Shown here in pieces: positions 22,915-45,644 of a stretch of DNA of 64,000 nucleotides. The stretch is from Alphaproteobacteria bacterium (GTDB lineage: Bacteria; Pseudomonadota; Alphaproteobacteria; Rs-D84). How positions within the stretch are numbered: position 1 is the stretch's first letter; each line of letters opens with the position of its first letter. The notes under the pieces are model-generated. The model was given only the letters and a program-made list of their open reading frames with translations, was not told where the DNA came from and did no database searches. The position numbers were made by a program, and so were the translations under genes. The stretch is taken from contig JAFVFD010000005.1 in assembly GCA_017475605.1 (NCBI GenBank), forward strand, positions 75,833 through 139,832. Reading direction: 5' to 3'.

Positions 22915-22995
22915 ACCACTACCCCGGCTCGTTTCACTCGCCACCCCTTAGCATGCGAAGGGGAATTACTGAACTCTGCCCCCCATCGCCCCACC
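22915..22995. repeat. Palindromic dispersed repeat element, copy 2 (homologous to 7353-7470)
   Basis: CTACCCCGG (22919-22927) and CGCCACCCCTTAGCATGCGAAGGGGAATTA (22939-22967) align with copy 1. It is preceded by the inverted repeat TGTCATTGC (22839-22847) / GCAATGACA (22905-22913). Confidence 0.45.
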
Positions 22996-23032
22996 ATATT
23001 ATGTTGACAGGAAACACGACATTGCTTGTACT

Positions 23033-23062
23033 AAAAAACCGCCCGTATGGGCGGTTTTTATC
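23033..23062 (-). terminator. Rho-independent terminator for the autotransporter gene
   Basis: AACCGCCC-GTAT-GGGCGGTT hairpin with flanking A-run and T-run. The gene's stop is at 23070. Confidence 0.6.
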
Positions 23063-23069
23063 AAGAACA

Positions 23070-26000: not shown

Positions 26001-28265
26001 ACCACCCAACGTTGCATCGTTTCCGGACACAATATTCAATGTTCCATTTTTAATCGATGCACCACCATCTACCAATACATCGCCGGTATTCGTTTTTAAT
26101 GTAATTGCGGATGGGCCACTTATAACCACACCCTTGGTTTGACCGGTTGTACCGTCAAAGAATATTCCATTATCAATATCAATGTCGCCACTTGTTGCGG
26201 TTACACCATTCCCATGCAGAAGGAACAATCCAGCCCCCGACAAAGATTTTAATGTTGTTGCACCAGAATATATTTCAACCGTTCCACCATTGTTTGCCGT
26301 AACATCACCAGTAATATCTAATGTTGTTTGCGTTGTTGATGTTGGTGCGTTACCGAACGCAATATTCCCCTTGCCACCAACGGTTACATCGCCACCAACC
26401 TCTATTACATTGGCCGCCAATGTTCCAGTACGCGCCACAGACGAATCGGTTGCGGTAACATCACCATCAATATTTATTTGTCCAGTGGACGCAAGTGTAA
26501 ATCTGTTAACACCACTGTTTGCAACATTAACATCGCCCGCCGCGGTTGCATTAGTTCCACTAAATGTTAAATTGCCATTGATTTGCGTTCCGCCACCAAC
26601 AGTTAAATTATATGTATTCGCCCCAACGTTAAACGCACCCGTCGTTACCAAAAGGTCGTTAGTTATTGTTGCGCCACCAATCCGCGCATCCAGGTTTGTT
26701 ACACCACCCTGGGCATCAATACCACCGATAACAACACTGGCCCCTGCCAAATCGGAGCCCTCGATTGTCGTTGTTCCTGCGGTTGTTAACACAACGCCAT
26801 CAATTGCGATTTGACGCGCACTAACATCAGTTGTTCCACCGGAATTGCTAACCCCACCAGACAAATGAATTTTTCCAGTCGGATCGGTTTGCGCCGCAAC
26901 GGTCAAAACACCATTACCAGTATTGGATACACTGGTTAATTCTATGATATCGCCATTCAATGTCATCACACCGGCATTAGATACCGCCCCGGTCGCGGTT
27001 AATGTGCCATCCGCAGAAACCGTCGTTTTTGACCCGGCGGCACCATAAATACTTGTCCCAGATGGTGTAGTAATTGTGATATTACCGGCGGTGTCTTCTA
27101 TTGTAGAAACTGTTAATTGATAACCGCGGTTTTGAATTGTGTTGGCTGTTATGCCGCCGGCCCCCGCGGTCAAAGTCATATTTGCCGCCGCGTTTTCTGA
27201 ACCGTTGGAAATATTGTTCGCAGCAATTGAACCGCCACTTACCACCAATTCAAAGTTTGTTAATTTATTATTTTCAAAAACCTGGGACAGACTGTCTGCA
27301 CCGCCACCCAAATTCAATGTACCTGTTTTAAGGCTGAAAGTATTGGTGGCCTCCATATCGCTTAAATCAAAACCATATGCCAAACTAGTTTCACCCGTAA
27401 CAACAATTGATAAATTACCCTTGTTCACGAACGATGCCTGGGTCCCCGAACCACCATTAATTTCCAATGAATCAACCGCAATATTCATGATACTGCCGGT
27501 GTTATCATTCTTCATTGTTCCATCAACAGTCATATCCGTACCGGTTATACGCATAAGGGTTCCACTGTTTTCGACACTGCCACTTGTTGTAATTTCATCA
27601 CCCGATTCAACAAGCATAGAACCACTGTTGTTTTGGATATTACGCGCAGAAATACTGCCCGCTGTGATTTGCGTTTCCGCATTACCATTTGCGATAAAAT
27701 CGTTAGTAATCGCTAAACCATTTGTAACATTGATTGTTGTGTTTCCGGACACAGAATCAATCGTTCCGGTTATATTTGCGGCATTCGCGGTTATTTCAAG
27801 GTTATCCTTGCTGGTAATATTACCGGTATTAAGTGTACCGATATTTTCCATTACCAACCCACCATCCGCACTTATCGTACCAATATTAACAGACGAAATT
27901 GTTGTGCCCTGGGTTTTAGATTTAATCCCCAACGAATAACCAGACAAAACTTCTAATACACTTGTAATAGAAACATTACCATCACTTGCAATTGTATACG
28001 GATTCAATGCGGTTGGTTCAACAAAAATCTGACCACTGGCAACCCCGGAACCAGCCTGTCCAACATACAAATTACTTGCCGACAAACCGCCGGTTCCCAA
28101 CGATAAACCGTTACCTGAAATAACACGCACAAAATTATCAGACGGCACCGCCAGCCCATCCATAACATTTGAATTCGGGGCCGTCGCCGGATCAATAACA
28201 ATCGGTTCCGCGACCGCCGCGCTAAACGGCACAACACATGACATAAATGCTAAAAATTTTTTCAT
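23070..28265 (-). CDS. Classical (type Va) autotransporter with a long beta-helical passenger
   Basis: 1731 aa. Signal peptide MKKFLAFMSCVVPFSAAVA. Highly repetitive Gly/Thr/Asn/Ser-rich passenger. The C-terminal ~280 aa have alternating hydrophobic beta-strand pattern and end ...QFHKFRLSGSYRF, the terminal aromatic of an autotransporter beta-barrel. Confidence 0.8.
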   Translation of the reverse strand: MKKFLAFMSCVVPFSAAVAEPIVIDPATAPNSNVMDGLAVPSDNFVRVISGNGLSLGTGGLSASNLYVGQAGSGVASGQIFVEPTALNPYTIASDGNVSITSVLEVLSGYSLGIKSKTQGTTISSVNIGTISADGGLVMENIGTLNTGNITSKDNLEITANAANITGTIDSVSGNTTINVTNGLAITNDFIANGNAETQITAGSISARNIQNNSGSMLVESGDEITTSGSVENSGTLMRITGTDMTVDGTMKNDNTGSIMNIAVDSLEINGGSGTQASFVNKGNLSIVVTGETSLAYGFDLSDMEATNTFSLKTGTLNLGGGADSLSQVFENNKLTNFELVVSGGSIAANNISNGSENAAANMTLTAGAGGITANTIQNRGYQLTVSTIEDTAGNITITTPSGTSIYGAAGSKTTVSADGTLTATGAVSNAGVMTLNGDIIELTSVSNTGNGVLTVAAQTDPTGKIHLSGGVSNSGGTTDVSARQIAIDGVVLTTAGTTTIEGSDLAGASVVIGGIDAQGGVTNLDARIGGATITNDLLVTTGAFNVGANTYNLTVGGGTQINGNLTFSGTNATAAGDVNVANSGVNRFTLASTGQINIDGDVTATDSSVARTGTLAANVIEVGGDVTVGGKGNIAFGNAPTSTTQTTLDITGDVTANNGGTVEIYSGATTLKSLSGAGLFLLHGNGVTATSGDIDIDNGIFFDGTTGQTKGVVISGPSAITLKTNTGDVLVDGGASIKNGTLNIVSGNDATLGGAIVADTANGVLNVTASNVVKFNDAITTTNGGTVTATGTTVKTAAINNGTSGTVSLGTTNTTDSVNTGTVTNKGTLDINAKAITMSGLDSSAGTTTVAATNALGIDSVVVSGGDVTLSGASVNSDSMTLSGGTTKLASGAIDVDGDISVSNGDMSQGGTTGGVLVLNNGGTLKADNLNVSGGALLVNANTVTYNITNNATFANGIDVVAAGTAIINAESVAITGNNAKTKNAGTLTLNTTDDLSLGVVENTGTLSLKTTSGAVNAASFKNNTGTATITANTLTLGNAFTIGGMLRQNYTSGLGTGDVNIMSDNHVLTTSNLTVKGIKQESGSMTIKSSDVAITNNIDATNLRIQADPANNWLDVDVGGNVSGGVQFVGLEHMDVGGNYTFDNNSMIHAAILGYPGVEINSTTYNYWSTVSLADDNTLGQITNATDGNAAPLISVAGRFINKATNVGSELSGDELVAPQIGIDIFDMVDSGTAIWLLHSASSEGLDELANKIRNLNVNFCNADGSLCFKYFDNSIAENANANQTQTQLPAYLTVRDIDEDGVTDSIYIVFDSRFGGPVEVFKIQPIVDRVDNHTDGEHDAAGALDEMIAGGLKDKKFNNTTPIEAIPVAFAGTNLEELANELYNRMEQYVLNPDGTALARFSRLVQPREAELVAGDVVLNEHTTFRDFEDHMLDEFIWNRHRSLKKAWVDVDYGLFYQNTDDGKHANGDRFSIMGGYDWQHSSTLLLGFVGHVSHMSSDDADTIDLSYRPNETINGRVSFDVADTNIGLGAYMMKILGTKTRLYGNGFFDLHLLDISREQNYVSSISGSGTAFSLISEWGLLHDWLNQYLVGNAYARVGYNFGFSVKEKAAGSDYMQMDSDGYLIFTPGYSLIVQKRIYPTSWFQVRPYASAGIEYDVLGVPDSINFKFGPAKTYSKYSVDIDPLWANIGGGVELLSAKGFQMGLDYRYQYNNDIQFHKFRLSGSYRF

Positions 28266-28376
28266 TGTATTTTTTCGTTTTATTATGGTTAATTTTATGC
28301 TTGTATTTTATCATAATTTAGCAATCATAACAAGACAGAAAAATAACTTATCGTTACGTAAAGAAGGAGAAAAAGT

Positions 28377-29639
28377 ATGTACAAAATAAAACGTATCCAC
28401 GCACGTCAAATCATGGACAGCCGCGGAAATCCAACCGTTGAATGCGATGTCGTATTGTCCGGTGGCGCGTTTGGGCGCGCGGCGGTACCGTCCGGCGCAT
28501 CTACCGGTGCAGCCGAGGCGCTTGAACTGCGTGATGGTGGAACGAAATACATGGGACGTGGGGTATTGACGGCGGTAAAAAATGTTAACGATATTATCGC
28601 ACCGGCAATTATTGGAATGGATGCCACACACCAGATTGAAATTGATGAAAAAATGTTGGAATTGGATGGCACAGACAACAAATCAAAATTGGGGGCGAAC
28701 GCAATATTGGCCGTATCTTTGGCGGTGGCACATGCGGCGGCATGCGCAAAACAAATGCCACTATACAAATATATCGCTGAAATATTTGGCGAAGAAAACC
28801 CATGCGTTTTACCACGTCCAATGATGAACATTATTAACGGTGGCGCACATGCGGACAACGGCCTGGATGCCCAGGAATTTATGATTATCCCTGTTGGTGC
28901 GAAATCTGAATTTGAAGCTATCCGTATGGGGTCCGAGGTTTTCCATCACCTTAAAACAATTCTGAAACGCGGTGGCAATTCAACAAATGTTGGTGACGAA
29001 GGTGGCTTTGCACCAAACTTTCAATCAACCCGCGCGGCATTGGATACCATTATGACCGCAATAACCGATGCGGGATACACCCCCGGTACCGATATTGCAA
29101 TTGGCCTTGATGTTGCATCATCTGAATTTTACAAGGATGGCAAATATTTATTCGAAGGCCACGAAATGTCCGCCGATGATATGATTGCGTTTTATGAAAA
29201 ATTAATTTCTGATTATCCAATCATTTCTATTGAAGATGCACTGGCCGAAGAAGATTGGGATGCATGGAAAACATTGACCGCGCGCATTGGCAACAAATGC
29301 CAATTGGTTGGCGATGATTTATTTGTAACGAATCCTGCACGCCTTGAACGCGGTATAAATATGGGGGCGGCAAATGCCATCTTAATCAAAGTAAATCAGA
29401 TTGGCAGTCTTACCGAAACCCTGCGCGCAATTAAAATGGCCCAGGATGCAAAATATGGTGTAATCGTTTCACACCGCAGTGGCGAAACCGAAGATACCAC
29501 GATTGCCGACCTGGCGGTTGGAACAAACGCTGGCCAAATAAAAACTGGTTCCATGTCGCGTACCGACCGTATGGCAAAATATAACCAGTTGGTCCGCATA
29601 GAAGAAGAACTGGACAAACGCGCAAAATATGGTATATAA
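28377..29639 (+). CDS. eno: Enolase (phosphopyruvate hydratase)
   Basis: [55 protein letters not shown]... Full-length enolase, 420 aa. RBS AAGGAGAAA. Confidence 0.93.
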
Positions 29640-29651
29640 ATATACAACAAA

Positions 29652-29685
29652 GGAAACGGGGAATAGCATTATTCCCCGTTTAGTT
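29652..29685 (+). terminator. Rho-independent terminator after eno
   Basis: AAACGGGGAATA-GCAT-TATTCCCCGTTT followed by AGTTT. Confidence 0.55.
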
Positions 29686-29691
29686 TAACAA

Positions 29692-29895
29692 ATGAATGTA
29701 TCTAATTTGATTATTTATATCAAATACATTGTCGCAATTATTCTGGTTGTGGCGGTTTTCTGTGCGCCGGCATATCTGGCGGGCCAAACCGGTCGCGATA
29801 AAACAGATATGACAAAAATACGTGTTGGATCATGGCTGCTGGGGTGGTCAATTATCGGTTGGCTTTGGGCATTATTCAAAGCATCCAAGAAATAA
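29692..29895 (+). CDS. Small membrane protein, superinfection-immunity-like (Imm_superinfect-type LLGW..IGW..AL motif)
   Basis: 67 aa with two TM segments. The C-terminal motif SWLLGWSIIGWLWALFKA resembles NLLLGWTGIGWIAALIWA of the Imm superinfection immunity family. Confidence 0.4.
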   Translation: MNVSNLIIYIKYIVAIILVVAVFCAPAYLAGQTGRDKTDMTKIRVGSWLLGWSIIGWLWALFKASKK

Positions 29896-29916
29896 ATTAT
29901 AAAAAACAATAAAAAA

Positions 29917-29946
29917 AGACGGGGCATGAAAAGCCCCGTCATTTAA
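29917..29946. terminator. Bidirectional rho-independent terminator
   Basis: GACGGGGC-ATGAAAA-GCCCCGTC flanked by AAAAAAA and TTTTTTTT. Confidence 0.6.
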
Positions 29947-29975
29947 TTGTTTTTTTTCAGATGTTTGAACAAATA

Positions 29976-30107
29976 CTATCTTTCGATTTCTTCGGGCAGT
30001 TTTCCCAGGCGCGCCGACAGTTCTGCGCGGATATCAACCTTCGCAGCCGCCTTTTTAAAGCCAACTTTACGCCCTGCCTGTTCAAACTTTTTTACGTTAT
30101 CAGTCAT
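29976..30107 (-). CDS. Small basic protein, 43 aa (MTDNVKKFEQAGRKVGFKKAAAKVDIRAELSARLGKLPEEIER)
   Basis: Below the ORF-track cut-off. ATG 30105-30107 is preceded by AAAGGTAG. A consensus-like promoter lies upstream and the bidirectional terminator immediately downstream. Confidence 0.35.
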   Translation of the reverse strand: MTDNVKKFEQAGRKVGFKKAAAKVDIRAELSARLGKLPEEIER

Positions 30108-30145
30108 GTTTCTACCTTTATTCAAAACATCTCTCTGACAAACCA

Positions 30146-30173
30146 ACTATATACACATAAATATTTTTGTCAA
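30146..30173 (-). promoter_or_regulatory. Putative sigma70 promoter for the 43-aa ORF
   Basis: Minus-strand TTGACA (revcomp of 30168-30173), 16-nt spacer, TATAGT (revcomp of 30146-30151). Confidence 0.4.
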
Positions 30174-30213
30174 GTATTTTGTTGTTTGTCAAATTTTATC
30201 CCAAACACCCCTT

Positions 30214-31770
30214 TTATTCGTCGCAACCGTATTCGCCACACGTGCCATCGGAATATTCGCCAACTTCTATCGCGACAGGATTGCCTGCCGGCTCATTAGT
30301 TGTATAATGCGTTTCCTTGACTACGCGGACACGACGATTTGCCGCATTCGGTGTATTGTCTGGTGTCGGAACAGCCAAATCTTCTTCACCACTGGATACG
30401 GCGACAATCTGACTTGCCGGGATACCGTATTGAATCAGCATTTTCTGGACCGCTTCGGCACGACGACCCCCCAGGGCATAGTTGTAACTTTTTGACCCGG
30501 CGGTATCGGTATGTCCGACCACAGAAACCTTGATATTCTTGTTTGATTGTGTCGCATCGGCCAATTTTTCAATCAAATCACGATATTCAGGTTTAATAAT
30601 CGCCTTGTTGAAATCAAAACGAACTTCAAAGACTTCTTCCATGACATGCTGTTTTGGTTCCAATGGAATCTGTTGAACCTTAATCATTGTCTTTTCGCCA
30701 GCGGCCGCCTGTAATTTATCCAAACGTGCGTTAATTGCCGCCAATTCTTCACGCATAGCCATCATCATATCGATAAATTCTGCGCGGGTTACGACATCGT
30801 CATTTACGACTGGAACAACAACTGGTTCTGGGTCTGGACAATTACATGATTCCTGGACAACAGGTTCTGGTTGTGGGCATGGCTTAACCTTGCACACAGT
30901 TTTTGCGCATGTGCAGTTTGATCCGGCCTGTAAACTGTTACCATTGTTGGACATGTTTTTGCTGACTGTTTTATCACCACCATAAATGTTTTGATTAAAT
31001 ACCATTGGTTGTACAGGTACCGGGTTAATAAGGTGTTCCGGCACATTCACATTGTTAACAATAATAACACCTTCGCGGGCGCGAGACGAATTGCTCATTG
31101 CGCGCATATTGCGTGTTTCCGGGTAATATTCACCGGCACTGCGCTGAACATCATTAACTGCGATTTCTGTTTTAACTGTTTGTGTTGTCTGGGTCTGGAC
31201 AGGTGTTTTTGCGATTACCTTGCCCCCCTTGCAATCACGCAGGGCAACCAAAGCCTTTTGGAAACGGTCGCGACATTGACGCGCGGTTGCTTCTTGGCCA
31301 CTGGCGGTGGCGGACAACCAACAATCGTATTTAGCCTGAACTTCGGCCGCCAATTCAGGATGTAAATCGGATGCATCGTTTTTCAATTGTTCCATCAATT
31401 CATTGTATGCGGTATATAATTCAAACGATGTTTGTTCATCATCAACCGGCCAATTTTCCATTGTTTCCGGGAACGGCAATTCACCAGAAAATGCGGCAAC
31501 CGCCTTCTGTGCGAACAATTCGCCCATTTCAGGATAGCCTGATGTACGCGCATTGTATATAGCATACGAACGATAGTTCATCGCCAATTGATTCAAAAAG
31601 GAATCTTTATGTGGTGCAGAATACACATCCAACCGTTCAACATAATCGACAGTTGGTGTTGAAACATCATATGCGACATCGCCCGCATTATCACGCGCAC
31701 ACGCGCCCAATGCCAGTATCAACAGGCCTGTCAATATTTGTACTTTGCACTTTGAACTTTGATTTTTCAT
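30214..31770 (-). CDS. OmpA-family lipoprotein
   Basis: Lipobox LILALGAC. C-terminal FDFNKAIIKPEYRDLIEKLA...VVGHTDTAGSKSYNYALGGRRAEAVQKML...NRRVRVV is a canonical OmpA C-terminal domain. The middle carries a Cys/Pro-rich segment CTCAKTVCKVKPCPQPEPVVQESCNCPDPEP. Confidence 0.75.
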   Translation of the reverse strand: MKNQSSKCKVQILTGLLILALGACARDNAGDVAYDVSTPTVDYVERLDVYSAPHKDSFLNQLAMNYRSYAIYNARTSGYPEMGELFAQKAVAAFSGELPFPETMENWPVDDEQTSFELYTAYNELMEQLKNDASDLHPELAAEVQAKYDCWLSATASGQEATARQCRDRFQKALVALRDCKGGKVIAKTPVQTQTTQTVKTEIAVNDVQRSAGEYYPETRNMRAMSNSSRAREGVIIVNNVNVPEHLINPVPVQPMVFNQNIYGGDKTVSKNMSNNGNSLQAGSNCTCAKTVCKVKPCPQPEPVVQESCNCPDPEPVVVPVVNDDVVTRAEFIDMMMAMREELAAINARLDKLQAAAGEKTMIKVQQIPLEPKQHVMEEVFEVRFDFNKAIIKPEYRDLIEKLADATQSNKNIKVSVVGHTDTAGSKSYNYALGGRRAEAVQKMLIQYGIPASQIVAVSSGEEDLAVPTPDNTPNAANRRVRVVKETHYTTNEPAGNPVAIEVGEYSDGTCGEYGCDE

Positions 31771-31797
31771 AAAGTATCCCCTTTCCTAATTGTCTGT

Positions 31798-31826
31798 ATT
31801 ATACGATTTTTCGCAAAATTAGTAAA
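31798..31826 (-). promoter_or_regulatory. Putative sigma70 promoter for the OmpA-family lipoprotein gene
   Basis: Minus-strand TTTACT, 17-nt spacer, TATAAT (revcomp of 31798-31803). RBS AGGAAAGGGGA before the ATG at 31770. Confidence 0.4.
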
Positions 31827-31863
31827 GCATAAAAACACAGAACCCAACAATTATTACAGGTTT

Positions 31864-32679
31864 TTATTTATCCATAAACTGTGATGCGATTGATCCCAAC
31901 GAAGACAGCCCACCATTAAGGCTTGCGCCACTTTGCGTGATACTTCCAACCGTCTGCATAATTTGTGATGTGCTGGTGTTTTTCCCAACATTACCCATAG
32001 CAGTGGTAAGGAAGTCCCCCCACATTTCTTTTTTCTTTTTACTGATTCTAGTGTCGGAACAATCTTCTACACGCGCCAACAATTTTCCAGCCATTGTTAA
32101 ATTATCACGTGTGGTATAATCGGCCATACCGAAATCAACTAAATCAAAAATCTCATAAATATTAGAAACTGTTTTTTGGTCTTTTGTACTGCATGTCGGT
32201 GAACCATCTGGACAATATGTCGCCTTGCTGGCCTTTGGAAAACCATTCCAGACCATTTCTGCATCCGCAGCAGATGCAAAATTATCATAGCAAATATTTG
32301 CCATATCGGTTCCCGCGGAATAACGCACCGAAGCCTCGTACCCCACACCACCGGGACAACGCGTTTTATTTAATTTACGTTCAACTTCTTCTGCCGTCAT
32401 TGTTCCAGTTTTTGCCCATTCCTTGATTGTGTTATTTACGAATTCGATTTCTGCACTTGATGGAATACAATATGTATCAAGTTCGCGTTGCTTTGCATTA
32501 AGGTTTTGAACATCGGAAACCAAACTTAAAACAGATGGCACCAAACTTGTTGCGGTGTTTGTTGCGCTTGCTTCCTGGGTCGCGACCGGTGCCGCTTTTT
32601 TAATAGTAACAGCCGCACCCACCACATTTGTGGTCGCGCACAAAACCAACGCAATAAACAATGTCAGATTTTTCTTCAT
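31864..32679 (-). CDS. Secreted hypothetical protein
   Basis: Signal peptide MKKNLTLFIALVLCATTNVVGAA. 271 aa with a Gly/Ser-rich C-terminus. Confidence 0.45.
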   Translation of the reverse strand: MKKNLTLFIALVLCATTNVVGAAVTIKKAAPVATQEASATNTATSLVPSVLSLVSDVQNLNAKQRELDTYCIPSSAEIEFVNNTIKEWAKTGTMTAEEVERKLNKTRCPGGVGYEASVRYSAGTDMANICYDNFASAADAEMVWNGFPKASKATYCPDGSPTCSTKDQKTVSNIYEIFDLVDFGMADYTTRDNLTMAGKLLARVEDCSDTRISKKKKEMWGDFLTTAMGNVGKNTSTSQIMQTVGSITQSGASLNGGLSSLGSIASQFMDK

Positions 32680-32770
32680 CTCTCTGTGGTAAATATTATA
32701 TCATAAAAAATGTTGCTCTCAAATATAAAAATTGCTTTTTATTAACGGGCGCGCTAAAGTGTTTCTTGAT

Positions 32771-33247
32771 ATGACAGACAACAGAACATTTCTTATCTTT
32801 TCTAAACACCGCCGTCTTCAACGTCTGTGGCAGTTTTTTTTCACAGGCTGGGGACTGGTGATGGTTGCGGCATTGGTTGCGGGCACGCTGTTCACGCGCC
32901 AATTATTATGGACGCCTATTGCCGCGATAAATATGCGCGACATCGCAACAAATCAGTTCAAGATGACGGACGCATCTTTTTCCGGGCTTGATCGCGATGG
33001 CAACCCATTTCACATCAATGCAAAAACAGCGCGCCAGGAATACGACCAACCAGACATTGTTTTTCTGGATACAATACGTGGCAACATAACACGTAAAATT
33101 GATGGAAAAATGGAAACGAATAATGTTTCCGCCGACCATGGTCAGTATCATATAAAACAGAAACGCGTTACTTTAAGTGGTAATGTATATTTACATTCGA
33201 CAACTGGGGACAAGGTATTAACAGACGAAATGGTGATAAAACTATGA
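32771..33247 (+). CDS. lptC: LptC-like LPS export protein (membrane-anchored, OstA-fold)
   Basis: N-terminal TM anchor FFFTGWGLVMVAALVAGTLF. It lies immediately upstream of, and overlaps by 4 nt with, lptB. The tool start at 32732 is a TTG; ATG at 32771. Confidence 0.4.
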   Translation: MTDNRTFLIFSKHRRLQRLWQFFFTGWGLVMVAALVAGTLFTRQLLWTPIAAINMRDIATNQFKMTDASFSGLDRDGNPFHINAKTARQEYDQPDIVFLDTIRGNITRKIDGKMETNNVSADHGQYHIKQKRVTLSGNVYLHSTTGDKVLTDEMVIKL

Positions 33248-33972
33248 AACAATCTGTATTACGTGTTGAACATTTATCAAAATCATATGGAAAACGCATG
33301 GTTATACGCGACATATCACTGGTCGCGCGCCAGGGCGAATCGGTTGGCCTGCTGGGACCGAACGGTGCGGGAAAAACAACTGCGTTCTATTGTATAACGG
33401 GCCAATTAAATGCCACCGGCGGACAAATCTTTTTGAATTCCCAGGATATAACCCACCTGCCGTTTTATCAACGGGCAAGATTACACATCGGCTATTTACC
33501 CCAGGAAAACAGCGTGTTCCGCGGTCTTACCGTTGAACAAAATATTATGGCTATATTAGAGGTTGTCGAACCCAGCAAAAAGAAACGTCAACAAAAATTG
33601 GATGCTTTACTTGATGAATTTGCGATTTCGTCCCTGCGACGCAGCCCGGCAACCGCACTTTCCGGTGGTGAACGTCGCCGCGTAGAAATTGCGCGCGCGT
33701 TGGCGAACGATCCAAAGTTCATTTTGCTGGACGAACCATTTGCGGGTATTGACCCGATTGCTGTTAATGAAATTCGTTCATTGGTATCGCAATTAAAAAA
33801 TCGTGGTTTGGGGGTAATTATTACCGACCACAATGTTCGTGAAACATTGGGCATTACCGACCACAGTTATGTTTTACACGACGGCAAGATTTTAAAGCAT
33901 GGCACGACTGATGAAATTATTGCCGATGAAATGGTTAAAAAAGTCTATCTTGGCGAAGATTTTGTGATGTAA
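33244..33972 (+). CDS. lptB: LPS export ABC transporter ATP-binding protein LptB
   Basis: Walker A GPNGAGKTT. Signature LSGGERRRVEIARAL. LLDEPFAGIDPIAV. 242 aa, the typical LptB length and motifs. Confidence 0.85.
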   Translation: MKQSVLRVEHLSKSYGKRMVIRDISLVARQGESVGLLGPNGAGKTTAFYCITGQLNATGGQIFLNSQDITHLPFYQRARLHIGYLPQENSVFRGLTVEQNIMAILEVVEPSKKKRQQKLDALLDEFAISSLRRSPATALSGGERRRVEIARALANDPKFILLDEPFAGIDPIAVNEIRSLVSQLKNRGLGVIITDHNVRETLGITDHSYVLHDGKILKHGTTDEIIADEMVKKVYLGEDFVM

Positions 33973-33973
33973 A

Positions 33974-34030
33974 AAACCGCCCCAGTTTTCACGCGACAAG
34001 GATTAACGTGAAAACTTTTTTCGGGGCGGC
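33974..34030. terminator. Bidirectional terminator (long compound hairpin)
   Basis: CCGCCCC-AGTTTTCACG...CGTGAAAACT-TTTTTC-GGGGCGG between the convergent genes lptB and 34065-36161. Confidence 0.5.
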
Positions 34031-34064
34031 ACTTTAGGGACACACCTAAAGAAACTTTTACCCG

Positions 34065-36161
34065 TTATTCACATGCACCATACGATGCGGCAACGGTCGC
34101 ATTTTCGATACACACACTGCCCGATACCGCGCATGCGGAGCGAACCAAAGTGATTGTACCATCAATGCTTGATTTGTAATTCAGGGCCGCGGCCTTACAC
34201 TGATTCAAATCAGTATATTCCGCACATGACAATTTCCAAGACTTACAATCAACCGCGGTTGCTGTTGGGCTAACCGTATCTGGCAAACGCAGATTCCATT
34301 TCACATAAAAATCTTTCAATGTGCCAATCGAATGTGATTTACCAAAACCAACCGTATTCAAACCATCACCAACACGACAGTTAATATTGTTGCGTTCAAC
34401 AAATGCGGTAATAGCGGTCGCCAAACCACCGGTTCCCGCACCAATCGCCGCGCCGGTTGCAATACTCTTGCCCATATTAGACTTTTCGCCATTCAACACA
34501 TCAAGGCCACCGAACACACCATCTAATTCGGCAATTTCAACCTCGGTTTCATCCTTGTTAACACAGCCGATACCCAGGTTTGTACATTTCAAACCACCTG
34601 CCAAATTGTCCGGATTGCGTAATGACTTGAAACGGCAACCAACTGTATCTTTGGCACACGAAGATGCCTCAACATTCAAATCACCAGATTCAATCGAACC
34701 AACCGAAACCAAGTAATCTATACAAGGTTTAGTATCCAATTTCCCGGCACCCGCACACGTTGTTGCCAGCAAGTTATCAATACAGGCTATTTTAGCACCA
34801 TCATCTTCACAACCCGCTGGTAATTCATATCCATTCGGATCAAACGAATCATTATAGACAAATGTACAATTCAACACATCATTACCAAAGCAACGGCTAA
34901 TATCTTGCTTTACGGTTTGATAGTTTGTGTACAAATCGACAATCGCACGACATTGACGCGCCGTCAAATCATTCGTTGTGATTTTATCGCCTTCGGGTAA
35001 ATATCTGTTAAGAGAATAGATATTCACACTTTTACGCAATTGGTCGCTTAATGTTTTGACCGCAGATTTATTATCGCAATCAAATGCGCGTTTGCCATGG
35101 CCCGCCAATGCACCAATTCCGGCACCGGCCAATGTTCCGCCACCAATACCCACAACCGCGGCAGTGCTTGTATCGTTCATCAACGAAAAACCGAACAAAT
35201 CTTTGTTACAAGTGAATGTATCGCCGGCGGCACGCCAAACCTCGGCTGGCTGGTCATTGCCCAGTGCACCGAACAACCAGTTGTTTTTGATTTGAGTGTC
35301 TTTGTTATATGCGGCCACGCGCAGATAGCAGGTTGCAGTTGTTGCATCCCAACGCGCATAGTGTCCACGCGCCCCATCAACACCCGGGTTGCCATAATTT
35401 AATTCTGCGCCCATCGGATTAGTCTTGATTAACACCCCGCCCTGTTGATTATTATAGGCACCAACGCGGTTATTATATTCACTTGTTGTACCACCATTGT
35501 TTTCGACGGCTGCAAACGATGGCCCATATGTATTCACATCCAACAACAGACATGTGTTTTCAGCCTGGTTTGGTGTCAAACCCGTTTTGCGCAAAACAAA
35601 GTTGTAATATTCCGGCTGAATCTTGCGCGAATTAAAGTCAACCCAAACATCTGCGATTGCGCGATATACAGGCTTGCAATCACGACGAACATCCGTCATA
35701 CATTTTTCCACCTGAATCGAGCAAAGCCCCATGCCATTCATAATCGCATTACGCATATCTTCGTTGAACAAATCATTCAAACCACCCGGCAAGGCACCGT
35801 TATTTATACACGCCAAAACATCGTTCATACAGTTTTGAACAGTATATTCAGAATTACGCACACCACCATCTGGACATTCCGGGGTTGGTTGTGGATCTGG
35901 CTGTGGATCATCTGGTTTTGGGTCCGGCTGTGGTTGTGGTTGTGGTTGCGGTTGTTGTGCAACATTTGTTGATATATTTGCCGGATTAATTGTCATTGTC
36001 GGCATAGACGGCATACGAAACGATTGTGCACCCGCACGATTACCCGCACGAACATTTGCCGCCGCACGCGGTGTTGCATCCGCCGCAAATGCCGCACAAA
36101 CAAAGGATATTACACCGAAACAGGCAACCAGGCCGCCGAATAATTTTGATGATTTTGTCAT
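34065..36161 (-). CDS. Secreted cysteine-rich protein, C-x6-C module family, paralog 3, with two glycine-zipper segments
   Basis: Signal peptide MTKSSKLFGGLVACFGVISFVCAAFAADA, RBS GGGGGA. (PQ)n low-complexity encoded by the tandem DNA repeat 35885-35960. Modules CMNDVLAC, CSIQVEKCMTDVRRDC, CAKDTVGC, CKSWKLSC, CAVSGSVC. Gly-zippers VVGIGGGTLAGAGIGALAG and IATGAAIGAGTGGLATAI. Confidence 0.55.
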   Translation of the reverse strand: MTKSSKLFGGLVACFGVISFVCAAFAADATPRAAANVRAGNRAGAQSFRMPSMPTMTINPANISTNVAQQPQPQPQPQPDPKPDDPQPDPQPTPECPDGGVRNSEYTVQNCMNDVLACINNGALPGGLNDLFNEDMRNAIMNGMGLCSIQVEKCMTDVRRDCKPVYRAIADVWVDFNSRKIQPEYYNFVLRKTGLTPNQAENTCLLLDVNTYGPSFAAVENNGGTTSEYNNRVGAYNNQQGGVLIKTNPMGAELNYGNPGVDGARGHYARWDATTATCYLRVAAYNKDTQIKNNWLFGALGNDQPAEVWRAAGDTFTCNKDLFGFSLMNDTSTAAVVGIGGGTLAGAGIGALAGHGKRAFDCDNKSAVKTLSDQLRKSVNIYSLNRYLPEGDKITTNDLTARQCRAIVDLYTNYQTVKQDISRCFGNDVLNCTFVYNDSFDPNGYELPAGCEDDGAKIACIDNLLATTCAGAGKLDTKPCIDYLVSVGSIESGDLNVEASSCAKDTVGCRFKSLRNPDNLAGGLKCTNLGIGCVNKDETEVEIAELDGVFGGLDVLNGEKSNMGKSIATGAAIGAGTGGLATAITAFVERNNINCRVGDGLNTVGFGKSHSIGTLKDFYVKWNLRLPDTVSPTATAVDCKSWKLSCAEYTDLNQCKAAALNYKSSIDGTITLVRSACAVSGSVCIENATVAASYGACE

Positions 36162-36280
36162 AGAAAATCCCCCCATGATAGTTGTTCTAATTATACCATA
36201 AAAAAGCCTTAAAAAAAGTTTTTTTACCGTAATTTTTGCTTTTTATTGAAAAAACTTAAAACATTGACAAAAACAATATC

Positions 36281-37381
36281 TTGTCTATAATAGAATTGAT
36301 GTGGAATAAAGTACAAGATTTTTATAACAATAACAAACATGCGATTATTTGGACCGCATGCTATATCTTTGCGTCATGGGCCATTATGCGCTATATGTTT
36401 AATTTCAATATCTTTTCCGCAACCCGTTGGCACCAACTGTTTCATTCGCATCTGTATGGCTTTGCGGGTTTCGTATTCAGTATTTTGATTTTGGCGATGG
36501 TGCCACTTTACATTGCAACGACCGTTATTATCGCACGAACCAAAACGCCACTTTTTAATATAAACATAACAATACCTGAATTTATCAAGACTTTTATTAA
36601 GAACGCATTTATTCAAACACCAATGCCGGACGAAGAACCACTTGCCACCACAGTTCAGGAAAACGAATCGGGACAAGAAAACCCAACCGAACAAACACCA
36701 GGCAACGAAAATACGGAAACACCGACCGAAACCACATCGCCCAACCCCGTACCAGACACCGTCCCGGCGGAATTACGCGTTGCATATATGCGCGCCCGCG
36801 ACAATGTTTTACACACACAGAAATCTGTATTTGACCTTGCTAATACCACCCGGACACCCGCCCCGGCACCAATCGCCGAACCGGCAAGTGCGGATGCCAC
36901 CCCAATGGAAGATTTTTCTATTCCAACAGATTTTGATATTACCGACACAGACAGCATTATGGGGAACGTGCCAACATTTACCGATATTGACCTGGATGCC
37001 GATATTGATGACGATACCGATGAACAAACACCCGAAATTACAGACATAAAAACCCAAAACAATGAAAACCAAGATGTAATAAACTATCTGAACAAAAAAT
37101 CTGTTCCATGTGAAATTATTGACGACATTGTTGTAACTGACAAATTCGCAATTGCATCGCACACAGATTCTGATTTCTGGGTTGCGGACAATGAATCATG
37201 GTTTGCCGCCGGAAAAATAAGAAAATCACCAATTGTATCTGTGTTAAATGTTGCAAAGCAACGCAACGTCCAACCGGTGTTATATTTGACATACGATAAC
37301 ATAATGGACATTGATGAATTGCGTACTGGGTGGCAAGATGCCGGCATTCGTGTGATAAACAACTTGGACGAATTAAAATAA
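36281..37381 (+). CDS. Membrane protein with acidic disordered linker (hypothetical)
   Basis: Two N-terminal TM helices; strongly acidic Thr/Pro/Asp/Glu-rich middle; a C-terminal globular region with no recognisable family. Confidence 0.45.
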   Translation: MSIIELMWNKVQDFYNNNKHAIIWTACYIFASWAIMRYMFNFNIFSATRWHQLFHSHLYGFAGFVFSILILAMVPLYIATTVIIARTKTPLFNINITIPEFIKTFIKNAFIQTPMPDEEPLATTVQENESGQENPTEQTPGNENTETPTETTSPNPVPDTVPAELRVAYMRARDNVLHTQKSVFDLANTTRTPAPAPIAEPASADATPMEDFSIPTDFDITDTDSIMGNVPTFTDIDLDADIDDDTDEQTPEITDIKTQNNENQDVINYLNKKSVPCEIIDDIVVTDKFAIASHTDSDFWVADNESWFAAGKIRKSPIVSVLNVAKQRNVQPVLYLTYDNIMDIDELRTGWQDAGIRVINNLDELK

Positions 37382-37408
37382 AAAACCGCCCGTTTGGGCG
37401 GTTTTTAT
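37381..37408. terminator. Bidirectional rho-independent terminator
   Basis: AACCGCCC-GTTT-GGGCGGTT with flanking A-run and T-run. Confidence 0.6.
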
Positions 37409-40368
37409 TAGAATTGGGTATCAGTACATGTTTCTTTTTCTTCGCCCCAATCTTTACAATACTTATTACCAAACAGCGGGTTCTTGGTATTTTCACAACT
37501 TTGTGAACGGACACATTTATGACAATTCAACGTTTCCCATTCAAATGTCGATGTAATCGTTTCTTTGTAATTCCACTGGTTTAACTGGGCCGAAGCAACC
37601 AACTCACGTTCTGTAATGTTGTCCACACCATTTGCAGAACCAGATCCGACATTACCCAACAACCCCATGCCGGCAACAGCAGTCGCGCCCACAGCCACAC
37701 CATTCACTGTCACCCCCGCAACCGTTATTGCTGTTGCAGAAAGTGCGGCAGGCCCCATAAGCGGCACCGCAACACAGGCACCGGTTATTGCAACCGCGGC
37801 CAATATTTTACCAAACGCATTTTTCGGGGGATTTGGTGATTTTGGCAATGTGGATGATGACGGCAATCCTAAACACGACAAACGTGCAATTTCACGACGT
37901 GCATCCAGGACATTTTTACCCTGAATTTCTGCCATACGTTCCCCAATTGTTGCATAATCTTGTAATAATTTTTCGTTTAATTCATCGTATTTTGTATAGT
38001 AATTTGATTTCGCCTGTTTCAGGGCCGCACTTGCAATCAATGACCGCATTTGCTTTGTTAATTCTGGGAAGCGCGGATTTTCCTTGGATCCGATTGTTGT
38101 GCGGGTTGAACGTGTACCATTCGCCGTTACAACATTTTTATTCATACCCTGAACTTCGCGACCATACATACAGAACTGAACTGTTGGGTCTGATTCAATC
38201 GTATTAATTGCATTATTAATACTATTCTGTAATTGCGCCAATTCAGATTTGACTTTTTCTTTCTGTTCGGGACTGATGCTTTTTGCTTCATCAACTTTCG
38301 TTAAATAGTCTTCAACTGATGATAATTTACCATCGGAACCAACCTCTACACTTTCCCAATAAATTGTCCCATCGATTACACCGGCCAATGGTGTTATAGG
38401 CCCCAATTGAGTACTGGTTGAACCTTCAACACGTCCCAATTCAACGTCTTGAATTTGCGCAACATCGGTACGACATGAATAGAAATCTATATCCGTAAGA
38501 TTTCCATTTTCATCCGTCTTGTAGCCACAAATTTTATAATCCAACGAATGCGCCCCTATTCCATTATCAATGGCTAATCCATTACAATTTTCGGTATCAC
38601 CACAAACTTTGATCATGGCTTCGTCGGCGGCCTTTTGGCACATGGTCAACATATTGTTGTCAATATTCAGCATAATACCTTGGACCATATTGGCGATTTC
38701 ATCGTAAACCTTGTTGCCACGAATATCCTGGCCTTCATAAACCTTTTGACAACCGACCAGTTTATCATACGGACACATACGCATAATGGTATCCGTATCC
38801 AGACCAACACATTGTGTATAGTCCGAACCACAGCGATCTTCTGACTGCAGACAGGATTTAACTTCCTTTGTACAGGAATCAACACGCATAGATGCCAAAC
38901 GCGCGACCACGAAATCCCAAATTTGTGATTTTTGCGCTTTGGATGCACTTGATGCATCAATACCACACGCATTAAGTGGAATCTTACATACATTAAGCAT
39001 CGTTTCTGGACGTGTCAAACACATATCATACGAACCGTCGGGGTCGTTTGGATCGATATTATCACGACAGGCCTTTTGGAAACAGGACGATATATTCCCG
39101 ATACAATTTTGACGGGCATTATCTTCAGCAATCAATTCAGCCGACTTGATTTGCGGTGCAATTTCTTTAAGGAATGTATCCCAAACCTTGTCCGCGACCG
39201 CAACGCATTGTTTTGTAACCGTTTCGCACAACGGTTTCTTAGACAGCAGTGTATCATACGATGATGCCGCTATTTCTATCGTTGTGGCCGAACCCTTGAC
39301 AGAATAACTTTTGGCTTTTCTGGACGTACTTTGGGTTGTGTTTGTATTATCCATCGCAGAAATCATCGCACATGCCGCGAAATCATTACCACAACCACCA
39401 GTTGTCTGCATACACTTTTTGAATTCTATTGTACACTGGCCCAAATCATAACGATTTTCCGCACGCAATTGTTCCAATGCCGCATCGCGCAGTGCGCGTT
39501 CCGCAGTCGCTAATTTAGTTTGACTGGCACTTTTCTGCTGTTTCAAACTGTTTTCATACGCATTACAATCAGATTTGATTTTTTGCGCATATAACAATTT
39601 CAGCATTGACATATCAGCCGCACATTCTGGTATCTGCGCCGCACATAAATCAGATGCCGCCCGTTGTAAAGCGTCCCCTGTTTTACCATCTATTGACGAC
39701 ACTTCACCGAAAATATCAAACACATCGTCTTCTTCGAACATGGCGCTGTTGTCCCAAATCGACAAATCAAGTTTCCGACGACCCTTTTCATCCCGGTCCA
39801 CAGAATCTATCGCATCTTTTGCCGCGGCATTTGCCTTGGCTATCGCCGCATCGGCATCCAATCCCATTTCGATTTTTTCAACACCATATGTTGCCATTTG
39901 ATATGATTGCTGATCCAGTTTTTCGATTTCGGCTAAAACCTCGTCTAATTCGGCATTACGATTACTGCAAACACACCGACCACCACTGGTATTGTCCAGC
40001 ATACAAAACGCATCCATACAGCCATAATATTTATTTTGGCATTGTTCATTAACCGCGGTGTTGGCAACGGCACCCGCAACCTTGGTTCCAGAATTGATAA
40101 CCTTTTGTGATGTAACCGCCGCACGTGCAGCCACAGTTTTGGGTTGTGTTGTGGCACTGCGTACAGATGTATTTCGCACCGCATTCGTTGACCGAACGGC
40201 ATTGCCACGCACCGCACTGCGTGCCGTCGTCGCCGCCCCAGATGTCGCACTTTGCGTCGCAACCGGTGTCCCCGAACCGCGTCCACGCGTTACAGGCGCC
40301 GCCGCATTTGCGTTTATAACCGCACCCAAAATCAACAGGATAGAAATAAATAATTTTCTCATCCACAA
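37408..40368 (-). CDS. Secreted cysteine-rich protein, C-x6-C module family, paralog 4 (986 aa), with a C-terminal Gly/Ala-rich hydrophobic segment
   Basis: Signal peptide MWMRKLFISILLILGAVINANA. Modules CQNKYYGCMDAFCMLDNTSGGRC, CTIEFKKCMQTTGGCGNDFAAC, CETVTKQC, CIGNISSCFQKAC, CTKEVKSCLQSEDRCGSDYTQC. A coiled-coil-like region. ILAAVAITGACVAVPLMGPAALSATAITVAGVTVNGVAVGATAVAGMGLLG. Confidence 0.55.
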   Translation of the reverse strand: MWMRKLFISILLILGAVINANAAAPVTRGRGSGTPVATQSATSGAATTARSAVRGNAVRSTNAVRNTSVRSATTQPKTVAARAAVTSQKVINSGTKVAGAVANTAVNEQCQNKYYGCMDAFCMLDNTSGGRCVCSNRNAELDEVLAEIEKLDQQSYQMATYGVEKIEMGLDADAAIAKANAAAKDAIDSVDRDEKGRRKLDLSIWDNSAMFEEDDVFDIFGEVSSIDGKTGDALQRAASDLCAAQIPECAADMSMLKLLYAQKIKSDCNAYENSLKQQKSASQTKLATAERALRDAALEQLRAENRYDLGQCTIEFKKCMQTTGGCGNDFAACAMISAMDNTNTTQSTSRKAKSYSVKGSATTIEIAASSYDTLLSKKPLCETVTKQCVAVADKVWDTFLKEIAPQIKSAELIAEDNARQNCIGNISSCFQKACRDNIDPNDPDGSYDMCLTRPETMLNVCKIPLNACGIDASSASKAQKSQIWDFVVARLASMRVDSCTKEVKSCLQSEDRCGSDYTQCVGLDTDTIMRMCPYDKLVGCQKVYEGQDIRGNKVYDEIANMVQGIMLNIDNNMLTMCQKAADEAMIKVCGDTENCNGLAIDNGIGAHSLDYKICGYKTDENGNLTDIDFYSCRTDVAQIQDVELGRVEGSTSTQLGPITPLAGVIDGTIYWESVEVGSDGKLSSVEDYLTKVDEAKSISPEQKEKVKSELAQLQNSINNAINTIESDPTVQFCMYGREVQGMNKNVVTANGTRSTRTTIGSKENPRFPELTKQMRSLIASAALKQAKSNYYTKYDELNEKLLQDYATIGERMAEIQGKNVLDARREIARLSCLGLPSSSTLPKSPNPPKNAFGKILAAVAITGACVAVPLMGPAALSATAITVAGVTVNGVAVGATAVAGMGLLGNVGSGSANGVDNITERELVASAQLNQWNYKETITSTFEWETLNCHKCVRSQSCENTKNPLFGNKYCKDWGEEKETCTDTQF

Positions 40369-43660: not shown

Positions 43661-43695
43661 AAAAAACCACCCAAACGGGTGGTTTTTATTTTTGA
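43661..43695. terminator. Bidirectional rho-independent terminator
   Basis: AACCACCC-AAAC-GGGTGGTT followed by TTTATTTTTG, between 43633 (+) and 43686 (-). Confidence 0.6.
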
Positions 43696-44633: not shown

Positions 44634-44685
44634 AACAAAACAAACATAACACAAAAACCAAAAATGTCAACAAAACTAAATAAAT

Positions 44686-45642: not shown

Positions 45643-45644
45643 TG

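Follow-up and report, generated by a model that had tools for sequence, protein, structure and literature searches.

The chlamydial cysteine-rich outer membrane complex is made up of OmcA, OmcB and MOMP, and the twin CX9C and CX3C (CHCH) proteins of the mitochondrial intermembrane space carry CXnC pairs on antiparallel helices that are held by nested disulfides. The glycine zipper, as Kim et al. reportedly defined it in 2005, is a GxxxGxxxG or small-xxx-small ladder on an uncharged helix of about 20 residues. In Escherichia coli, SlyB, YfgH, OsmB and YiaD are outer-membrane glycine-zipper lipoproteins with two transmembrane (TM) helices (bioRxiv 10.64898/2025.12.22.696046). Here we analyse two large Cys-rich proteins, termed R and T, and the protein S encoded between them, in a stretch of 64,000 nucleotides (the window) from an alphaproteobacterium of the lineage Rs-D84 (GenBank assembly GCA_017475605.1, contig JAFVFD010000005.1, positions 75,833 to 139,832). 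We give slightly better than an even chance to the reading that R and T are unrelated, lineage-specific, Sec-exported, disulfide-bonded envelope or surface proteins that belong to one orphan gene cluster. Judged by the comparisons below, this cluster resembles four known systems in functional terms and is a member of none. The three genes are:

34065–36176, minus strand: R (IKW57_01580), 703 residues, exported, Cys-rich
36281–37381, plus strand: S (IKW57_01585), membrane protein, between R and T
37408–40368, minus strand: T (IKW57_01590), 986 residues, exported, Cys-rich

Enterousia (order Rs-D84) is a rod-shaped, peptidoglycan-making bacterium that lives by fermentation, has no respiratory chain and has a genome of less than 1 Mb, and it probably depends on a partner organism (PMC12306168). 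The top match to T is identical (100%) to a hypothetical protein of a metagenome-assembled genome (MAG) recorded as ‘Alphaproteobacteria bacterium’. More than 1,010 T homologs occur in gut and rumen assemblies, all of them hypothetical and with no Pfam domain; the 762 R homologs are all hypothetical as well, and the 488 S homologs are all lineage-specific, none of them annotated. A scan of one genome per species returned 380 stretches that encode a T relative. Where the record has a title, it names Candidatus Enterousia or an unclassified gut alphaproteobacterium, and one of these records is a circular genome of 958,618 bp; the T superfamily comprises 888 clusters at 50% identity. The cluster members of ten distant T relatives are metagenomic only and include no named protein, and literature searches on Enterousia and Rs-D84 turned up no mention of R, S, T or the cluster proteins. 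Two contigs that encode T fall outside this taxonomy by their records: one labelled ‘Bacteroides fragilis’ (L019, CAVGNU010000007.1) carries T, U, rpoA and rplQ of the Enterousia type, and one labelled ‘uncultured Muribaculaceae’ (L033, CAZPLT010000001.1) carries T and an Enterousia-type H-I-J arrangement. Both are probably mis-binned in public MAGs.

Pfam and NCBIfam were scanned with all proteins of the window, and Pfam also with 45 R, 43 T and 26 S orthologs; the only families recognized were OmpA, LptB, LptC and those of context genes. Sequence-profile searches of the PDB with the T, R and S alignments returned nothing significant. AlphaFold2 (AF2) models of R and T, compared with the PDB by Foldseek, gave a best match at E = 0.39, to a flagellin. 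R shares with flagellin- and pilin-like proteins the pattern of conserved, fixed-length ends around a hypervariable middle, but this likeness is an analogy only, as there is no significant match and the cluster encodes no filament or export apparatus. R, S and T thus match no known family, solved structure or fold; within the reach of these searches, they are orphan families that lack annotation and occur only in Rs-D84.

A first-pass annotation, made from the sequence alone, had described four minus-strand open reading frames (ORFs) in this region, N, O, R and T, of which R and T were taken to be large Cys-rich proteins. All four lie where it placed them, and both R and T carry type-I signal peptides with no conserved lipobox Cys. 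Translation of R probably begins at Met6 (nucleotide 36161, the start given in that annotation), which fits the 698-residue ortholog P0121, and T probably begins at Met3 (nucleotide 40362), the NCBI ortholog being 984 residues long. A short motif, R-M-P-[ST]-M, lies 20–30 residues past the signal-peptide cleavage site in R, in I orthologs (I being another exported protein of the cluster) and in Tp2 paralogs, which are distant relatives of T:

36003–36017, minus strand: R-M-P-S-M of R, found by counting the motif in orthologs
15927–15941, plus strand: R-M-P-T-M of I, found by motif scan

Of 120 R orthologs, 112 carry the motif, as do the Tp2 paralogs of loci L003, L017, L020, L026, L038 and L048, and it is missing from 120 T orthologs and from about 1,300 other ORFs of the loci compared. 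It matches no known sorting or processing signal, and it may serve as a sorting, processing or anchoring signal. The mature R protein starts with ADA, and a Brucella-type N-terminal Ala-Asp linkage to peptidoglycan was considered for it; this candidate was rejected, as the motif is not conserved in orthologs.

R and T had been proposed to be paralogs of one C-x6-C family, and this relationship does not hold. BLASTP aligns the two proteins with a best E value of 0.88. A comparison by hhalign of the R and T family profiles, each built from 40 orthologs, yields nothing at 50% probability or above; the same method recovers the relationship of T to its distant paralogs Tp1, Tp2 and Tp3 at 99.7–100%. 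The CX6C segments of R reach at most 12% probability against any segment of T or of the cluster proteins H and I. By these measures, R and T are not paralogs and have no detectable homology, and the lack of significant pairwise similarity between them is the result that the first-pass annotation itself had named as refuting its proposal.

Comparison of the Cys-rich proteins at module level does reveal a shared element, which is found in T, H and I and not in R. This module of about 25 residues, C-x6-C-x6-C-x6-C, occurs at residues 312–333 and 499–520 of T, 168–189 of H and 161–180 of I, and is matched by hhalign at 95–97% probability (E values of 1e-8 to 1e-10): the first T copy matches the second at 97% and the H and I copies at 95–96%. 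A weaker second match in I covers residues 232–251. The T copies, both located by hhalign, are:

39370–39435, minus strand: four-Cys module copy 1 of T, residues 312–333
38809–38874, minus strand: four-Cys module copy 2 of T, residues 499–520

What does stand of the original proposal is the enrichment of the C-x6-C spacing in both proteins. Cys makes up 4.0–4.3% of T and R, compared with 0.32% of the window’s non-family proteins. T has 11 adjacent C-x6-C pairs where 1.2 are expected, a number reached in 0 of 20,000 shuffles, and R has 6 where 0.88 are expected (P = 3e-4). Enrichment is similar in H and I, and is not found in J, K, N, O or G. This enrichment, real as it is in R and T, speaks for the view that the two are paralogs of one C-x6-C family and form, with N, O and lptC/lptB, a two-armed envelope scaffold; the comparisons of R with T, which show no likeness at the level of sequence, profile or module, contradict that view, which we rate as very unlikely and take up again with the gene order below.

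The pattern in which Cys residues are kept or lost bears on their chemistry. In an alignment of the T superfamily with 128 members (50%-identity representatives and paralogs), most of the 38 conserved Cys of T are invariant, and those that vary go in pairs:

C422/C468 of T: both lost in 5 sequences, single loss in 0, phi 1.0
C434/C450 of T: both lost in 18, single loss in 0, phi 1.0
C506/C532 of T: both lost in 6, single loss in 0, phi 1.0
C952/C981 of T: both lost in 85, single loss in 3, phi 0.95
C614/C632 of T: both lost in 62, single loss in 8, phi 0.88
C958/C971 of T: both lost in 16, single loss in 11, phi 0.70

No two of the three pairs with a phi of 1.0 are missing from the same set of sequences. 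Counts are also even: 76 of 84 aligned T sequences contain 38 Cys, all 31 H orthologs contain 20, and in every one of 86 aligned R sequences the variable middle contains 4, 6, 8, 10 or 12, despite only 29% identity. Because Cys are lost in pairs and occur in even numbers that include 6 and 10, they would act as disulfides rather than as metal clusters. Disulfide-type Cys in turn point to an oxidizing, extracytoplasmic location, which fits the Sec-type signal peptides.

DsbB, which oxidizes the disulfide-forming machinery, is coupled to quinone. The high Cys density, an anoxic habitat and the lack of a respiratory chain to drive DsbB would each suit a different use of these residues, namely as ligands of Zn, Fe or Cu in periplasmic metal stores or redox proteins. 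We regard this as highly improbable: Cys are not lost in threes or fours, counts of 6 and 10 occur, and the proteins have no His/Cys cluster motif, no Tat signal and no match to a cofactor family.

In T, the nesting of C434–C450 within C422–C468, in a region predicted to be helical, suggests a stapled hairpin, with C429–C461 added by elimination alone:

38965–39105, minus strand: putative twin C-x6-C helical hairpin of T, residues 422–468, from Cys co-loss

We infer that this segment forms an antiparallel ladder in which the C-x6-C pair 422/429 faces 461/468. CHCH proteins have the kind of nested CXnC pairing that T would have, judged by co-loss and the helical prediction. They differ in a spacing of 9 or 3 rather than 6, and the Enterousia proteins are Sec-exported, have a mass of 70–100 kDa and would carry many staples; there is no homology between the two groups. 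Like the chlamydial complex, the Enterousia cluster is a set of exported Cys-rich proteins from a host-associated organism with a reduced genome, and its disulfides are plausibly structural. However, there is no sequence similarity to the chlamydial proteins, T is predicted to be helical and Enterousia keeps its peptidoglycan synthesis genes; none of ten Cys-rich proteins scanned against Pfam and NCBIfam matches an Omc family.

R is organized, from its N terminus, into the signal peptide, an R-M-P-S-M-P sequence, a variable Pro-rich linker, an N-domain, a first glycine zipper, a head, a second glycine zipper and a C-domain. Identities below are mean pairwise values over 45 orthologs:

residues 100–339: N-domain of R, 79% identity, no indels, 9 Cys
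35091–35159, minus strand: glycine zipper 1 of R, residues 340–362, G343xxxG347xxxG351xxxG355xxxG359, 84% identity, fixed length
34491–35090, minus strand: head of R, residues 363–562, 29% identity, 146–225 residues
34392–34490, minus strand: glycine zipper 2 of R, residues 563–595, G575xxxG579xxxG583xxxT587xxxA591, 75% identity, 32–33 residues
residues 596–703: C-domain of R, 71% identity, 107–108 residues, 7 Cys

Orthologs that are 91–92% identical in the N-domain and 100% identical in zipper 1 share just 22–31% identity over residues 426–562, a contrast that indicates diversifying selection or cassette exchange restricted to the segment between the zippers. The Cys of the conserved parts behave differently from those of the head. 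The N-domain has 9 Cys in 81 of 86 sequences and the C-domain 7 in all 86, and none of the 18 Cys of the base and its junction varies in 160 sequences. With an odd count in both domains, one Cys of each has to pair beyond its own domain; by the same counts, the partner could lie in either the other domain or the middle region. Within the head, C531 varies together with C538, as would suit a local loop rather than a twin-CXnC hairpin.

The Gly-rich strings that the first-pass annotation had pointed to are present at residues 341–359 and 572–589 of R and 859–902 of T. Its reading of them as glycine zippers is borne out for R, where both ladders fit the motif and are invariant or nearly so in the 45 orthologs, and not for T, whose segment lacks the strict motif. 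Residues 389–405 of I also fit. More broadly, hydrophobic helices rich in Gly are a repeated feature of R, J, I and T; the segments of R and T are uncharged, about 20 residues long and have Kyte–Doolittle means of 1.6–1.7.

Membership in the known glycine-zipper families, which had been suggested in the form of a likeness to Gly-zipper_Omp and the Rickettsia 17-kDa antigen, finds no such backing. Neither R nor T reaches the gathering score of Gly-zipper_Omp (PF13488), YMGG (PF13441) or Rick_17kDa_Anti (PF05433). Full-length R and T give no match to the Gly-zipper hidden Markov models (HMMs) at E ≤ 0.1, and their isolated Gly-rich segments give none at E ≤ 10. Among the 45 R orthologs, weak sub-threshold matches are to DUF1269 (12 orthologs, best E = 7e-4), Gly-zipper_Omp (3, 0.067) and YMGG (2, 0.037), and the 43 T orthologs yield no Gly-zipper family match at all. 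When the two R zippers are spliced in silico with the head deleted, Gly-zipper_YMGG becomes the top match in five of six constructs (E values of 0.003–0.06). The alignment then runs across both halves and covers profile positions 3–42 of 45; single halves match nothing. This result is suggestive, being in line with a zipper of two helices that an insertion has separated, although composition alone could yield it.

R thus resembles the SlyB/Pcp, YfgH, OsmB and YiaD proteins and the wider Gly-zipper clan, including Rick_17kDa_Anti, in having two uncharged helices with conserved GxxxG ladders, and it would share with SlyB-type lipoproteins a place in the envelope of a diderm. It differs from them in several respects. 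The SlyB type has a lipobox, which R and T lack, and a short turn between its helices, which in R lie 146–225 residues apart on either side of a hypervariable Cys-rich domain; R also has large Cys-rich flanking domains.

Whether such segments would be retained in the inner membrane can be estimated from Hessa-type sums on the translocon hydrophobicity scale of Hessa et al. (2005). The zipper segments of R, T and J sum to +3.3 to +4.2, and the SecY helices, the LptC anchor and the anchors of the cluster proteins F and G to −4.2 to +1.5; the two TM segments of S give +2.9 for the first and −0.7 for the second. As they are less hydrophobic than most real anchors, the zippers would be poor stop-transfer sequences and would probably pass the inner membrane. 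These values, +3.3 to +3.7 for R and T, count against the possibility that the two are periplasmic proteins anchored in the inner membrane by ordinary helices, for example as envelope spacers. That arrangement would agree with uncharged segments of this length and Kyte–Doolittle mean, with the two hydrophobic stretches of T, which would put both of its Cys-rich domains in the periplasm, and with S, an inner-membrane protein that is always encoded alongside. Yet two passes would put the R head, hypervariable and with an even, variable Cys number (4–12), in the cytoplasm, and we hold this arrangement to be unlikely.

For export beyond the inner membrane, a more specific arrangement can be drawn. 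In R, the N- and C-domains would form one conserved base, and the two zippers would pack against each other as the antiparallel helices of a SlyB/YfgH-type membrane hairpin, split by the insert of 146–225 residues. The hairpin would lie in or across the outer membrane and show a disulfide-knotted head at the cell surface, where the head may diversify under pressure from phages, host immunity or partner recognition. This outer-membrane split-hairpin topology is a tentative proposal that we consider doubtful. T would be a long helical protein with hairpins stapled by C-x6-C pairs, tethered by a weaker hydrophobic hairpin, so that the small C-terminal domain would end up on the same side. T, H and I could then be disulfide-stapled structural or contact elements that work with J, which would anchor the assembly to peptidoglycan through its OmpA-like end. 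In the most far-reaching form of this scheme, R would represent a new display architecture, with a zipper hairpin that crosses the outer membrane, a hypervariable head of 150–225 residues and a periplasmic disulfide-linked base of N- and C-domains. It would be part of a cysteine-stapled ‘exoskeleton’ of T, H, I, J and others that uses R-M-P-[ST]-M as its sorting motif and, because the organism has no respiratory chain, an unconventional route of oxidative folding. We consider this extended form somewhat less probable again than the split-hairpin topology itself.

Several observations weigh against these proposals. The AF2 models are poor: R has a mean predicted local distance difference test (pLDDT) score of 53.9, with the head as its sole confidently modelled part, T has a mean of 60.1, with 70–82 in its C-terminal domain, and the zipper segments score below 50. 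The localization of R and T is a prediction from sequence, and neither is a lipoprotein, unlike all characterized outer-membrane glycine-zipper proteins. Every match to a Gly-zipper HMM is far under threshold and could be explained by composition; even the spliced zippers reach only 13–18 bits against a cut-off of 28.9, a shortfall of 11–15 bits. The parity of the Cys counts would also allow disulfides that bridge a zipper, such as C323–C367, in which case each zipper would be a re-entrant or soluble loop and not a membrane pass. Co-lost Cys pairs may each reflect a single evolutionary event. Finally, a search confined to the window and the flanks of the loci found no Dsb- or thioredoxin-type CxxC gene, in an anaerobe that does not respire and would have to oxidize 14–19 disulfides per protein.

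T begins with its signal peptide and an 82-residue tail of Ala, Thr, Ser and Arg (residues 23–104) that has a net charge of +11 and no acidic residue. The core that follows (residues 105–835) is predicted to be helical and contains 33 conserved Cys. Beyond it lie:

37654–37821, minus strand: hydrophobic Gly/Ala-rich segment of T, residues 850–905, two uncharged stretches around a variable loop
37411–37608, minus strand: C-terminal beta-rich domain of T, residues 921–986, about 65 residues, 5 Cys, invariant TQF end
37381–37406, minus strand: terminator-like hairpin directly past the T stop codon, 11-bp stem and T run

The hydrophobic segment varies from 19 to 64 residues among orthologs. In the C-terminal domain, C952/C981 and C958/C971 co-vary, and C949 has no partner inside the domain. 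The 33 Cys of the core and the 5 of this domain add up to 38, which implies one disulfide that crosses the hydrophobic segment; C832–C949 was tried for this bond, and co-variation gave no assignment. The TQF end was also considered as the beta-signal of an outer-membrane protein and rejected, as it has no alternating hydrophobic pattern and the domain before it is a small Cys-rich beta unit. Given the strong terminator-like hairpin past its stop codon, T looks monocistronic; the hairpin would also serve the S gene, which ends there on the opposite strand.

S, a gene that the first-pass annotation does not mention, encodes two TM helices near the N terminus; an acidic disordered linker joins them to a conserved domain of about 100 residues at the C terminus. 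A perfect sigma-70 consensus (TTGACA, a 16-nucleotide spacer and TATAAT, matching at 12 of 12 positions) lies on the plus strand at 36264–36291 and ends 7 nucleotides before the ATG at 36299, which is Met7 of the S ORF and about where S orthologs start. From this spacing, S may be translated from a leaderless or near-leaderless mRNA.

To place these genes in context, the ORFs of the window were compared with those of 77 related loci, many of which end at contig edges. A 914-kb contig of a relative has the order rpoA, rplQ, U, T, S, R and then the orthologs of J, I, H and G, and the order U-T-S-R-J-I-H-G-F recurs in L001 and many of the other loci. T, S and R are adjacent in 39 of the 77 loci and R is next to J or I in 22, but R is next to lptB-lptC in only 2 (L025 and L057). 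In the window, the ancestral relative orientation is retained, T(−) S(+) R(−) ... J(+) I(+) H(+) G(−) F(−), with about 12 kb, from K to lptB, interposed between R and J:

10445–13825, minus strand: F, 1,126 residues, signal peptide, ankyrin repeat and Gly-rich hydrophobic segment, kept cluster neighbour
13941–14741, minus strand: G, N-terminally anchored coiled coil with a CxC cluster and a PAKPAK-type Pro-rich tail, kept cluster neighbour
14831–15748, plus strand: H, 305 residues, exported, four-Cys module at residues 168–189
15756–17792, plus strand: I, 678 residues, exported, R-M-P-T-M, two T-related four-Cys modules and a GxxxGxxxG segment at residues 389–405
17821–21810, plus strand: J, 1,329 residues, exported, 69 Cys
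21855–33972, no strand: insertion splitting the cluster, from synteny, with K, L, eno, N, O, lptC and lptB
21855–22610, minus strand: K, 251 residues, exported, 22 Cys
23070–28265, minus strand: L, 1,731 residues, autotransporter-like
28377–29639: eno, in the insertion
30214–31770, minus strand: N, 518 residues, OmpA lipoprotein
31864–32679, minus strand: O, 271 residues, secreted
32732–33247, plus strand: lptC, Pfam LptC
33244–33972, plus strand: lptB, TIGR04406

By gene order, T-S-R-J-I-H-G-F is one conserved orphan cluster of Candidatus Enterousia, and what had been seen as two arms is one cluster that was split. The first-pass annotation was right to group R and T with the other Cys-rich genes of the window, as T-S-R stands directly beside J-I-H-G-F in most relatives, and to place its ORFs around lptC and lptB, which lie between O and R (lptB is firm, at 352.9 bits against a cut-off of 240 for TIGR04406; lptC is assigned by Pfam alone, with 33.2 against 21 for PF06835 and 30 against 38 for TIGR04409 of NCBIfam). 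The interleaving with N, O, lptC and lptB to which it gave weight is instead a derived feature. Because the 12-kb block occurs only in L025 and L057 of the 77 loci, N, O, lptC and lptB are bystanders and not members of the system; L025, L057 and L074 are the three closest relatives of the window by RpoA (96% identity).

The two-armed scaffold introduced above would have drawn further strength from N, which is a genuine OmpA-family lipoprotein with a conserved CxC/Pro-rich insert, and from the recurrence of Gly-rich helices across several proteins. N, however, has no glycine zipper, and elsewhere R abuts J. As with OmpA/Pal lipoproteins generally, N has a lipobox (LALGAC, whose Cys24 is kept in the orthologs from L025 and L057) and ends in an OmpA domain that scores over the Pfam threshold (PF00691, residues 384–479, E = 3.4e-19, 69.5 bits against a cut-off of 27.2), and it differs from them by an N-terminal region of 360 residues that holds the insert. 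It scores below the Pal equivalog cut-off (TIGR02802, 84.3 against 125.35 bits) and below that of YiaD_Gzip_OmpA (NF053611, 77.5 against 175 bits), where the OmpA half alone is covered (profile positions 102–204). The recurring pairing of Cys-rich modules with zippers or OmpA-like domains survives in part: Gly-rich helices are found in R, J, I and T, and an OmpA-like domain in J, but neither R nor T has one. J combines a CarboxypepD_reg-like domain, C-x4-C repeats and the OmpA-like C terminus, and has two Gly-rich hydrophobic helices about 125 residues apart. A scaffold function for the cluster may hold, and the extreme variability of the R middle speaks no less for a role in which R is exposed at the surface and diversifies.

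The families evolve differently within this cluster. R is present as a single copy per locus, at a fixed chromosomal position beside rpoA-rplQ. Two full-length T copies in tandem occur in 17 of the 77 loci (including L026, L028, L032, L036, L042, L046 and L047), and 8 loci (including L003, L017, L020, L026, L038, L040 and L048) carry a set of three distant T paralogs, Tp1 of about 830, Tp2 of about 750 and Tp3 of about 830 residues. T identity is also at odds with that of RpoA, as the closest genomes share 96% in RpoA and just 53–59% in T, a discordance that suggests paralog turnover or exchange.

Duplication and turnover of T are among the features that would suit secreted effectors or toxins directed at a partner or host. 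R, and perhaps T, could act in this way if the zippers inserted or formed pores in the style of VacA or of toxins of type VI or type VII secretion systems, the head bound a receptor and S served as an immunity or export partner. The lineage is presumed to be parasitic or symbiotic, mosaics of conserved and hypervariable parts are typical of receptor-binding proteins, and glycine-zipper toxins exist (for example, PMC12955049). Against this stand the single R copy at its fixed position, the OmpA-like domain of J, which ties the cluster to the producer’s own wall, and the lack in the cluster of secretion-system genes, of toxin or immunity family matches and of polymorphic-toxin architecture. On these grounds, an effector role appears unlikely, and we keep to envelope or surface proteins of the producing cell.

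Other features of the window concern genes around the cluster. A CxC-rich run followed by a Pro-rich stretch is found both in N (residues ~271–311, 30840–30960, minus strand, CTCAKTVCKVKPCPQPEPVVQESCNCP) and in G (residues ~100–128, 14360–14445, minus strand, CACQGNKTGCDCKDAKNKCDCCKCEKPAKQ), and the core of the N insert is conserved in its two orthologs. The Cys of K occur mainly as CxxC pairs and not as C-x6-C, and its orthologs are found only in L041 and L071; it is a separate Cys-rich family. L is Cys-poor, with an autotransporter-like C terminus and no Pfam or NCBIfam match. Like L, a second giant protein, of 2,154 residues (363–6827, minus strand), is of surface type; it has a YadA-like anchor (5.4e-10) and a marginal match to the Chlamydia PMP repeat. 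A gene of the choloylglycine (bile-salt) hydrolase family (7550–8644, plus strand; CBAH, 8e-63) stands beside a DUF1015 gene (8668–9942, plus strand; 1.3e-114), and both fit a gut lifestyle. Ribosomal protein L17 (41330–41899, minus strand) continues past its Pfam domain (residues 24–118 of 189) for about 70 C-terminal residues rich in Ala, Lys and Pro. Between rpoA and the secY/ribosomal-protein genes, a patch of low GC content (44716–47507, minus strand; 0.35–0.38 against about 0.43) carries type I restriction-modification genes, hsdS (Methylase_S, 1.4e-29) and hsdM (N6_Mtase, 3.3e-30), with an alpha/beta hydrolase gene adjoining at 43686–44654, and looks like an inserted island.

Enterousia (Rs-D84), which is uncultured, is widespread in the guts of humans, ruminants and birds. 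It devotes about 24 kb of its genome, or about 2–3%, to the large orphan exported proteins of this cluster (T, S, R, J, I, H, G and F summed), most of which are Cys-rich. These proteins are prime candidates for building the envelope and for contact with a partner, a host or phages. The R head is likely to be a strain marker, antigen or receptor, and the conserved core of T could be a target for antibodies used to enrich or image the cells. Disulfides on this scale, in an anaerobe that does not respire, also pose the question of how proteins are oxidized outside the cytoplasm. The architecture of R may be genuinely new; if it is as proposed, an alpha-helical glycine-zipper hairpin with a surface domain would join a very short list of designs, other than beta-barrels, that span the outer membrane.

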